Below are positions 32,101 through 64,000 of a stretch of DNA of 64,000 nucleotides, piece after piece. A program made the position numbers and the translations under genes. The notes beneath the pieces are model-generated. The model was not told where the DNA came from and did no database searches. It was given only the letters and a program-made list of their open reading frames with translations. Origin of the DNA: Eutreptiella sp. 'Long Island Sound 2002' (taxonomy: Eukaryota; Protista; Euglenida); assembly GCA_964036045.1 (NCBI GenBank), contig OZ038379.1, forward strand, positions 14,198,001 through 14,262,000. The letters run 5' to 3'. Numbering within the stretch: position 1 is the stretch's first letter; every line of letters starts with the position of its first letter.

Positions 32101-35100
32101 ACGGGGGGGGGACACCAGGAAGTACCAACCGGCATACTCAGCCTTCATGGAACCTCCCCCCCCTCCCTCTTTTTTTTTTTTTGAGCTACAAAAGATGGTG
32201 CGGAGGGGAGAGTCCCCTGCGAGATCGGAGTGTTTCATTTCCCTCCAAAAGTCTCTGAAAACGACATGGTCGTTTGTTTCCAGTTTCCAGTGTGCGTAGC
32301 CCTCCTCCATGATGTGCTGTCCGCAGGTGCTGCTGTGACAATGGAAGGCCCGCTCAGCCACAGTGGCTCTGGTAACAAAGTGGAGTTGACGTCGGGAGCT
32401 GAGATGATGTTTAGCGGCCTGTACAGTGACACTGACAAACCAGAGCAGCACAAGGTGGCCGGTGCAGGTGTGTTTTGCACTGGCCCGCCCTCGCTTTTTT
32501 TTTGGTGGTTGCCTTTCTCGCTGCCCATGTACTACGGAAAGGCACGACACCCCTCCCCCGTTCACACACAGTTGTATAGTCCTGCCTCCCACTCATTGCG
32601 GCAAACTAATATCATTTGCATATCTTGAGTCTCACGGACCCGGCAAGGTTCGAAACCGAGGTGGAACATGAGTCGGAGCTCTGGCCGTAGTCGGCCACAC
32701 CTCGCGAAGCCGAGCGCGAGCATTGGGACCCGTGGCACGAAATCCCTCCGTGCCCTGCACCCTCTCGATGTCAAGTACCCTCCCCACTCTTGTCTAGGAG
32801 CCACCCAGGCCCAAATCCACATGGTCTGGACGCCTCGTTTTCATTGGACAGGAGCGTCTCTCGTGTACGCGCGTTTGCGTGCGAACAACAGCTGCAGACC
32901 GGAATTGAGTACAGAGTAACGTATGGTCCGCCTCAGAAAACAGTACGAAAGGCAACAGCAGGGCCTCCGGGTGCTGCATGGAGTCCAAATTGCATGGGGT
33001 CAACTGAATTATGGCATGTACTGGGGCGCCTCTCAACCCCTTCCTCACGCACTCGCAGGTATGACCAGCGCAGGCAACACCTCCTTCGAGAAGTCTGAAA
33101 CCACGTTCGAAGGGCCATTCGTCAGCGACGGTGATGGCGCCTTCATGCAGAGCAACGGGGGGAAGGTCAGTTTCTCCTCCAGCCTGCAAGCGGAGATGGA
33201 CATGTACGACGAGGACAGTGAGTCCTCCTTTGCCGTCCGCCGCCTGCTCCAGACCGAGGACGGCGTGCAGACGCTCCTGCGGAACGCCACGTCCCACTTG
33301 GTGGGCGGTGAGGGCTTCCGGTCCGCCGGCAACGTGAGCATCAGCACGGGGGCCGACACCACTTTCCAGGTCTTGTCTGTTGGGCCTTCTCCTTGGACAA
33401 CAGCGCCCCAGGCAGAGTAAAGCCTGCTCAACCCACACCCTCTCCCCAGCTCTCGTCAAGTTGCCAGGGGCGGCAACATGGGCCGTGCTCCTGTTCTTGC
33501 TCTTGGGTGCTCCACCTCACTAGTCCCCTCCGCGGTCCCTAGGGAAAGGCAGAGGGGTGCAGCCTATCAGTCAGTGGCTCTCCCTCTGCATGCCCCCCCT
33601 CGTGCCCGCTGCACGTCCCCGGCACCTCCTGGTGGTCGTCCTCAGGGATCGATGAATCACTCCGGGGGCCTCATCAACATGACGGCCGGCGCGCGCGCAC
33701 TGTTCACCGGGAAGTACGACGATGAAGACGACGTGGATTTCATGGCCGGCGCCGATGCCCTCCGCAGCCACAAAGTTGGGGGCGCCGGGATGGAGAGCGC
33801 CGGAAACATCAGCTTCAAGCTGTCCAAGACCGTCTTCGCGGGCTCACTGAAGAGCAACGGCACCACCGCGCTGCTGGAGAGTGCAAACGCCAGCGTCACG
33901 TTCGGGTCCTTCCTCGACGCGGATGCCGACGACCTGGTCGCTGCGGCAGACGGGGACAACGCGCTCGGGAGCATGTTCGCGAGGCGGCTGTTGCAGACCG
34001 AGGACGGTGCCCAGACGGAGCATTTGGTGGGTGGCTTGGGCTTCCGGTCCAAAGGTACCGCCCCGTGTGCCGTTGGATGTCGCGTGCCCCCCGGACTCAG
34101 CAGGGACCAGCTGCACCCCGTGTCGGCCGCAGTAGGACCCAACTGCTGCTGCTCACGTCCGACCTGGCGGACGCTCGTGGCAAGTGTCTTGATGTACTGT
34201 GGCTTACCCCGGACATCGTCGTGTACCCTGGCCACGCCTTTCTGCGGAACGGAGGAGGTAACGACACGCAGTCACTCGCCGCACGCATCCTGCAGGATCT
34301 TGCAGGATGTGAGGGGCACAGGGGACGGCTGCGGGCCATTTTCTGAACAGACTCGACTGGATGCCACATGCCACCGGAACATGTTCTGGTGATGGATCCA
34401 TGCAGGGGCGGGGGAAGGGGGAGCAGGTGACGTCGCGTGCGCATGCGGTGCAGGTATCAGGACAGTTGGGGGCACCCAGACGTGTGCTCCGCATTTTTTG
34501 TCTTTGATGCCTCTTCGTGTGGTTTGGTGTGAGGGGGTAAATATCAGACCCCGTTGGCCTCTTTGGTGTCCAATAAAGGCCACCACCCATACTGTGTTCT
34601 CGATTTCCCCGAGTAGCGTGAGTTGAGCAGCACGACGGAGGAAGATTTTCTCTGTCCTAGATTCAGCTCCTGTTCTCGATGATTGTTTTCAACTTGTCTT
34701 ATGGGGTTGTGGTAGGCGTTACCGCGCCCCGCCGCCCTCCGGGCATGGTCGCACAGTGCAGGGTACACCAATTCTGGTACTTATGGGGATTCCATCCCCC
34801 CTAAAAAAGGGGCTCCTTCCCCCACACTGACACAGAAGATGGGGATTCGGGTGTTGACGATTTGAGGGTGGGGATGTTCCGGAACTCTGTCCATAGTTCC
34901 GGTCTCGGTGCGGGAAATCGTGCAATTCCGTCCCCCTATATGACAGAAAGGGACCCATGGTCTTGCAATGACCCTTGACGACGCCCAGTTCTGTATTCTG
35001 TGCTGACGCGTGACTGTCCCTTCAAAAGGTGCGCATGGCGCAAGTACTCCTCCAGGGGCACAGCGCCCCACACAGTGTGGGACTCGTCCCTGCCCCACTC

Positions 35101-64000: not shown

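Follow-up and report, generated by a model that had tools for sequence, protein, structure and literature searches.

The 64,000-nucleotide (nt) window analyzed here, positions 14,198,001 to 14,262,000 of contig OZ038379.1 from the euglenid Eutreptiella sp. 'Long Island Sound 2002', is crossed on its forward strand by a giant gene (2023..64000) that is spliced and transcribed. It encodes a genuine array of RRLL motifs that is under selection as protein sequence. The giant protein is likely glycosylated and either secreted or placed at the cell surface, and an S1P-type subtilase likely cuts after RRLL. The reading we favor, with a confidence that stops somewhat short of an even chance, is a beta-helix of more than 9,800 residues that would receive S1P-type cuts in its loops and whose pieces would stay stacked as a nicked rod or fiber. 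Its likely use is as a coat, hair or extrusome fiber.

The RRLL array and its gene

A six-frame scan located 56 RRLL motifs on the forward strand, 55 of which lie within 33200-63625, where a preliminary description of this DNA had reported about 55 regularly spaced RRLLQ motifs; one more was found at 30537. Among these 55 there are 54 RRLLQ and one RRLLA, the latter at 61721, matching the single exception that had been placed near 61720. The reverse strand holds 7 RRLL, none followed by Q. One spliced frame contains all 56 motifs, where 0.12 would be expected from composition, and they are spaced by 137-167 residues in the spliced protein, the mean of 158 agreeing with the units of about 160 residues described before.

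Conservation at the protein level, also claimed earlier, is borne out by 29 different four-codon strings that spell the 56 motifs and by the lack of any amino acid change at a proportion of synonymous differences (pS) of 0.54 among 41 units less than 90% alike. In the same units, the ratio of nonsynonymous to synonymous differences (pN/pS) is computed as 0.056 for RRLL, a remainder that stems from the pathway counting of the method, compared with 0.34 for the cores, 0.72 for the mid loop and 0.83 for the acidic linker. The linkers are thus nearly neutral in their drift. Asp and Glu make up 21% of them (with crude linker boundaries) versus 12% of the whole protein, in line with the hypervariable, Asp/Glu-rich linkers of the preliminary description. 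The unit copies are not independent: 49 of the 55 units are distinct, and at 90% identity they fall into 41 groups.

The gene model consists of 23 exons and 22 introns, all 22 with GT-AG borders, and its 9,872 codons run in one frame with zero stops and are open at both ends of the window. Contigs of estuary RNA skip eight GT-AG introns between 2199 and 19468, while a single contig that joins 35125-35547, 36118-36509 and 37463-37881 confirms two further introns. In addition, the spliced distances of the model (2,179 and 1,052 nt) equal those of a 3,161-nt RNA contig to the base. The estuary libraries also contain intronic pieces, and transcription is therefore proven by the spliced contigs only. 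For 56000-64000, 52-77% of the sampled words are present in four estuary metatranscriptomes among the 13 runs listed. None of the joints listed leads into the giant exon, but RNA pieces with overhangs stop at 38111 and resume at 39880. One RNA contig reaches 1,073 nt 5' of the first exon, with adjoining letters that are absent from the window; the start of the gene therefore lies upstream of the window, and its end lies downstream. An artefact or dead repeat was considered as well and is ruled out by the 9,872 open codons, the fitting spliced RNA and the purifying selection on the cores.

The basic repeat of the protein is Gly-rich, measures about 50 residues and opens with H-x-I/V-G-G-x-G. 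In exons 1-13 (2023..26419, residues 1 to about 855), such repeats, opening with H-x-I-G-G-x-G, follow one another uninterrupted and are linked mostly by short turns, with no RRLL loops, as seen from the repeat profile, the model and RNA joints; a profile of the units detects weaker repeats from about 4300 onward. The approximately 1,000 residues upstream of the array, which the preliminary description overlooked, are the same repeat without motif loops. Exon 14 (27429..27737; RNA piece and Cys count) encodes a Cys-rich insert with 10 Cys in residues 856-962, flanking codons included. After this insert, each unit is made of two repeats of about 50 residues, each followed by a long loop: the first is the mid-unit loop, and the second is acidic and ends in RRLL. 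Exons 15-22 (29111..38113; six-frame scan, RNA and model) contain the first six RRLL junctions, at 30537, 33238, 33982, 35492, 36500 and 37909. Exon 23 (39882..64000), of at least 24,119 nt, contains 50 (scan, models, RNA pieces at 39880-40950 and the RNA words of 56000-64000) and lies within a stop-free frame at 39827-64000. These 50 motifs, 49 followed by Q and 1 by A, form an array of predicted protease sites in predicted disordered loops at 40127..63622. All these features are on the forward strand.

A second, variable R-x-L-Z motif, also missed by the preliminary description, is found on the same strand in the mid loop of 41 of the 55 units (40139..63610), namely in 41 of the 49 units of the giant exon and in none of the six before it; shuffled loops gave a mean of 9.5 and a maximum of 21 of 55. 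The variants are RSLL (9), RGLL (6), RRLM (4), RGLK, RSLQ, RQLL, RKLL and RELM (3 each), RALL, RSLM and RNLL (2 each), and RELL (1). From the sequence, the array has expanded by block duplication. Recent duplications are seen in the giant exon at 40629-43875, 47500-55942 and 60786-64000, and self-comparison aligned 1.8 kb at 98% with a shift of 1,425, 2.6 kb at 98.5% with a shift of 5,802 and 0.85 kb at 98% with a shift of 2,361. Where blocks are this similar, the longest being the 2.6 kb at 98.5%, the copy number could be mis-assembled.

Other elements are lodged in the introns. The intron at 5597-11325 carries an open reading frame (ORF) of 1,040 codons of the long interspersed nuclear element (LINE) type (7796-10918, forward strand), with a reverse transcriptase domain (PF00078) above cut-off and zf-RVT below cut-off. 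RNA-library contigs covering it are about 2% different; therefore, further LINE copies exist. High-copy repeats occupy 21001-21667, 25003-29004, 31006-32339 and 39010-39676, where the summed contig depth is in the thousands, compared with single digits on unique sequence; no Rfam match to them was found in a scan of 1-40000.

Predicted fold, relatives and secretory signs

The model of a single unit is an all-beta solenoid with a mean predicted local distance difference test (pLDDT) of 70.6, both loops below 50 and no confident cap. It aligns with the Pet passenger helix (Z 10.1, root-mean-square deviation (rmsd) 2.1, 101 residues aligned) and with bactofilin 6ria (Z 8.1). A three-unit model reached a predicted template modeling score of 0.75, with pLDDT values close to 90 or higher in most core blocks and below 50 across the loops at both motifs. 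Its residues 12-462 align as a continuous helix with the autotransporter passenger helix 7akv_G (Z 21.4, rmsd 3.2, 297 aligned), so that the motif loops would leave and rejoin a single helix; it also aligns with the HMW1 and EtpA secretion domains and many other beta-helices. The three units are predicted to make up a single unbroken right-handed beta-helix whose motifs sit in disordered loops, and not a row of separate beads, a point that the preliminary description missed. The check on the exposure of RRLLQ by structure prediction, suggested in the preliminary description, turned out in favor of exposure, with predicted loops of pLDDT below 50. Two adjacent units modeled as separate chains scored 0.00, in a prediction that used no alignment and left the fold of the partner uncertain. 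A shared fold by itself shows no function. Neither model had a Foldseek match at E 0.001 or better, Pfam gave no family above cut-off for the units, the N-part exons, the Cys insert or the homologues, and Atlas matches for two units were 0.81 or lower. For the Cys-rich insert, the best Atlas cluster scored 0.93 (206 of 256 features shared), and PF15024 Glyco_transf_18 occurs on 12% of the members of this cluster, a recognition below the mark of the tool and a lead only.

A profile search of 1.84 billion representatives returned 21 matches, four of which are ORFs of the window itself. P0005, P0007, P0009 and P0021, each with an ENA contig of 3,245,376 bp as its source, are 64-73% identical to the model and appear to represent a second gene, orthologue or paralogue, which keeps RRLLQ at 3/3 covered junctions with differing linkers. 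The ORF of P0005 leaves the repeat at a point inside the window's exon 23, a sign that its gene may have an intron there. P0001, at 50% identity, keeps RRLL at both of its complete junctions. A decaying copy (P0002, P0003, P0022, P0023 and P0029; ENA contig of 393,914 bp) is 80-86% identical to the window units and has 1-3 of 23 invariant columns broken in 6/6 units, the P4 Arg once; one part of it is fused to an unrelated long ORF. A 47-residue repeat fragment (P0015, P0038-P0041 and P0013; 92% identical) is present on as many as 10 ENA contigs, and another contig has one of 97 residues; both are likely carried by a mobile element.

More distant are P0012, P0014, P0016-P0018 and P0033, JGI hypothetical proteins of an unnamed beta-helix family that is likely anchored in the membrane and has the same 50-residue repeat. 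In P0014, P0017, P0018 and P0033, which share the repeat at 25-30% identity, 13/13 RR pairs are RRL; the fourth residue is G in 5, T in 3, A in 2 and I, L and E in 1 each, and the fifth is D or E in 8. This count leaves out P0012 and P0016, which are apparently partial and have no RRL. P0033 (1,556 residues) looks complete and has about two RRL loops per module and a further one just ahead of the anchor region. In P0018, an RRLA lies within an insertion at the same between-repeat turn as the window motifs. Since the upstream repeat of the giant protein is loop-free and P0018 has its insertion at this turn, the motifs would sit in insertions within a continuous helix. No relatives were found in prokaryote genomes (0/36 stretches), and the P0033 pattern had no match in the viral contigs searched.

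Passage through the secretory pathway is suggested indirectly by N-glycosylation sequons and by the homologues. Within the units, 262 of 371 Asn stand in sequons, compared with 77 for the reversed pattern, and five alignment columns carry N-x-S/T in 54, 52, 50, 50 and 40 of the 55 units, where S and T replace each other. Among the first 1,020 residues, 17 of 40 Asn are in sequons. Hydrophobic N-termini are seen in P0033 and P0018, and hydrophobic C-terminal segments in P0033, P0014, P0017 and P0018. The conserved sequons are thus joined, as signs of a secretory route, by distant homologues that combine RRL loops with hydrophobic N-termini and likely membrane anchors.

Proposed processing and competing explanations

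The S1P rule given in the available text of PMC8310232 is R-X-aliphatic-Z, with X not P or C and Z not V, P, C or E, and RRLL is called optimal there. For mammalian S1P, the same text states that RRLL can direct cutting in the endoplasmic reticulum (ER) and that RRLA and RSLK are cut later (PMC8310232). All 56 main and all 41 mid-loop motifs of the giant protein obey this rule, which makes the SKI-1/S1P-type site proposed earlier a good fit at the level of the motif. A cut after the fourth residue is preferred because 56 + 41 motifs obey the rule and only 28 of the 41 mid-loop motifs fit RxLxE/D/Q. Concerning the presence of such an enzyme, an oomycete protein is 41.6% identical to human S1P in the part of PMC5841299 that was accessible, which shows only that protists can have one.

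In the proposed mechanism, the giant protein would enter the ER and about five sequons per unit would be glycosylated. The predicted cut, between RRLL and Q, would perhaps be early and that at the weaker mid-loop sites perhaps later, in two tiers. N-terminal Gln and Glu are both able to cyclize; the new ends would be Gln at 55/56 main sites and Gln or Glu at 28/41 mid-loop sites, and pyroglutamate would form. Cuts in the loops would nick the continuous helix while the pieces stay stacked, and cutting of both loops would leave halves of about 8 kDa, each some two rungs long and probably too small for independent folding. A sign that the pieces stay together is that the only loop Cys among the 56 junctions, at the 2 copies of one duplicated junction, flank RRLL on both sides. 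The rise of a beta-helix is 0.48 nm per rung. With 14 strands per unit and three per rung, 55 units would make a rod that is about 120 nm long, or longer, and carries acidic tails and glycans. We rank this nicked rod with its acidic tails and glycans first, at a little under an even chance, followed by free subunits, by no cut and by another protease register.

Several observations count against the nicked rod. Structure prediction readily stacks tandem repeats and is silent on stability after cutting. Asn and Ser/Thr ladders are common in beta-helices, and for this reason the sequon counts overstate glycosylation. The mid-loop motif is absent from 14 of the 55 units, from the P0005 unit for which the best-matching window unit carries one, and from P0001. 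The flanking-Cys sign comes down to one junction type in the window; in P0001, one complete junction is flanked by Cys on both sides and another on a single side. At the 13 RRL sites of the distant homologues, the fourth residue is Leu just once, and once it is Glu, which is barred for S1P. Regarding the ends of the protein, a search with exon 1 for longer proteins that would give the true N-terminus yielded 0/42 candidates, a metagenome scan for termini 1/164 candidate stretches, a weak match within a bacterial locus judged to be chance, and no membrane segment was found in the window part of the giant protein. Furthermore, more than one subtilase may cut the RRLL/RKLL motifs of plants, several being considered, according to the accessible part of 10.1101/2022.07.28.501549.

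The preliminary description favored a true polyprotein, in which RRLL cuts would release dozens of paralogous subunits of about 17 kDa, either separate or re-polymerized in a new order. Several of its premises are supported, namely the conservation, the fit to the S1P rule, the predicted loop position and the indirect secretory signs, and there is one invariant site per unit, the units have diverged to a mean identity of 57%, a single unit is still modeled as a beta-helix, and the new N-terminus would be Gln in 55/56. Diatom precursors, moreover, release repeats at RXL in the account available from PMC4557024. The release of independent subunits is nevertheless disfavored: the helix is continuous across the junctions of the three-unit model, the single-unit model has no confident cap, the second site, present in 41/55 units, would halve most of them, and a Cys pair spans one junction. 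We regard it as distinctly unlikely, although it is the nearest competitor. Slightly less credence goes to an RRLL(Q) that is not cut and instead serves, on a rod of more than 1 MDa that stays intact, as a signal for docking, sorting or chaperone binding. The loops are long enough for folding without a cut, and RxL-type motifs are described as targeting signals in the available text of PMC1464399. However, an exact optimal protease site within predicted disordered loops argues otherwise, the mid-loop copies keep the P4 Arg and the P2 Leu while P3 varies, as under the protease rule, and 56 invariant copies would hardly be needed for sorting.

The least probable of these rivals, in our estimate, is that the loops are cut by another enzyme, either between RRL and L, as by the diatom RXL endopeptidase or a plasmepsin V/ASP5-like aspartic protease, or after RR, as by a kexin-type enzyme. 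A different register has to be considered because only RRL is fixed in the distant homologues, where the fourth residue is free in the 13/13 RR pairs that read RRL and D or E comes fifth in 8/13. K or R directly precedes the motif in 38/56 cases. RRLLQ fits the pattern RxLxE/D/Q, taken from the accessible text of PMC1464399, in 55/56 cases, and the diatom RXL enzyme is unnamed in the available parts of PMC4557024 and PMC5647440. Against this, the fourth Leu is invariant in 56/56, although such a register would leave it free, the mid-loop motifs fit RxLxE/D/Q in 28/41 cases versus 41/41 for the S1P rule, and 9,872 residues contain only 2 R-x-K/R-R furin sites. Under the register rules of plasmepsin V and ASP5, the residue after RxL is free.

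The nicked rod can be extended to a self-perforating fiber, a more doubtful proposal than the rod itself: a beta-helix of more than 1 MDa with about 100 two-tier sites would be shipped or unlocked in pieces that stack in order into a glycosylated, acid-tailed surface filament. If true, a rod longer than a transport vesicle could be shipped or unlocked in this way, and curli would have a counterpart in eukaryotes that is encoded as a polyprotein. The giant protein would then belong to an unnamed plankton family of beta-helix surface proteins with RRL loops and be the most site-rich S1P substrate known to us. Cut as predicted, it would offer 56 optimal and 41 naturally varied sites in one protein, with which the enzyme that recognizes RXL/RRLL motifs in the secreted proteins of algae and protists could readily be tested for. 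A nicked beta-helix would also be a route to a long surface fiber. In any case, the giant gene defines an unannotated protein family that is expressed in estuarine plankton.

Comparison with known systems

RXL-processed repeat precursors are already known from diatoms, while the family, fold context and scale of the giant protein were not found in our searches. Among the papers listed by a literature search for such a giant RRL-looped beta-helix protein, none was judged to describe one, and no survey of S1P in algae was found in the literature searched. In the parts of PMC4557024 and PMC5647440 that were available, the diatom silaffin Sil1p, silacidins, frustulins and cingulins carry RXL at the C-termini of their repeats, proposed as an endopeptidase signal. 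Similarly, an RXL-type motif closes each repeat of the giant protein, with RRL at 56/56 junctions. The differences lie in size and composition: Sil1p has 265 residues and seven units, and silacidins are short acidic peptides, whereas the giant protein is longer than 9,800 residues and carries 56 sites or more, in Gly-rich units of about 158 residues that are predicted to be folded. With 9% Ser and 4% Lys, it also lacks the Ser/Lys-rich or strongly acidic short repeats of the diatom precursors.

The SKI-1/S1P substrates named in the accessible text of PMC8310232, such as Lassa GP-C, Crimean-Congo hemorrhagic fever virus PreGn and the S1P prodomain, are cut at RRLL, RKLL and RSLK-like motifs, and in plants the precursors of pectin methylesterases carry RRLL/RKLL and SBT6.1 cuts RALF23 in that of 10.1101/2022.07.28.501549. 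The motifs of the giant protein likewise obey R-X-aliphatic-Z and lie in predicted flexible loops. These substrates, however, have one or few sites in the sources available, in contrast to 56 optimal and 41 variant candidate sites in one chain. The pattern RxLxE/D/Q of PEXEL, TEXEL and RxLR motifs is found at 55/56 main, 28/41 mid-loop and 8/13 homologue sites; unlike in those leaders, the first RRLL comes more than 1,000 residues into the model and the motif occurs 56 times, not borne by a leader.

Profilaggrin and nematode polyprotein allergens are long arrays of diverged units, duplicated in blocks and with conserved linker sites, whose units separate after cutting. The units of the giant protein, by contrast, are predicted to share one helix and have an S1P-type motif. 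Curli CsgA and bactofilin are small beta-solenoids that stack end to end, but they are made as separate small proteins and not from a giant precursor, and the fold match is only middling. The predicted right-handed parallel beta-helix is shared with the passengers of autotransporters and two-partner secretion systems (Vag8, HMW1, EtpA, Pet, TibA). Their Gram-negative origin is not, given a spliced eukaryotic gene with 22 GT-AG introns; moreover, identity to those entries is 8-15%, the loops bear motifs at regular intervals, and no Pfam family is recognized at cut-off. From these comparisons, the giant protein may work like the diatom RXL precursors or the plant substrates, but it belongs neither to the diatom families nor to the autotransporters.
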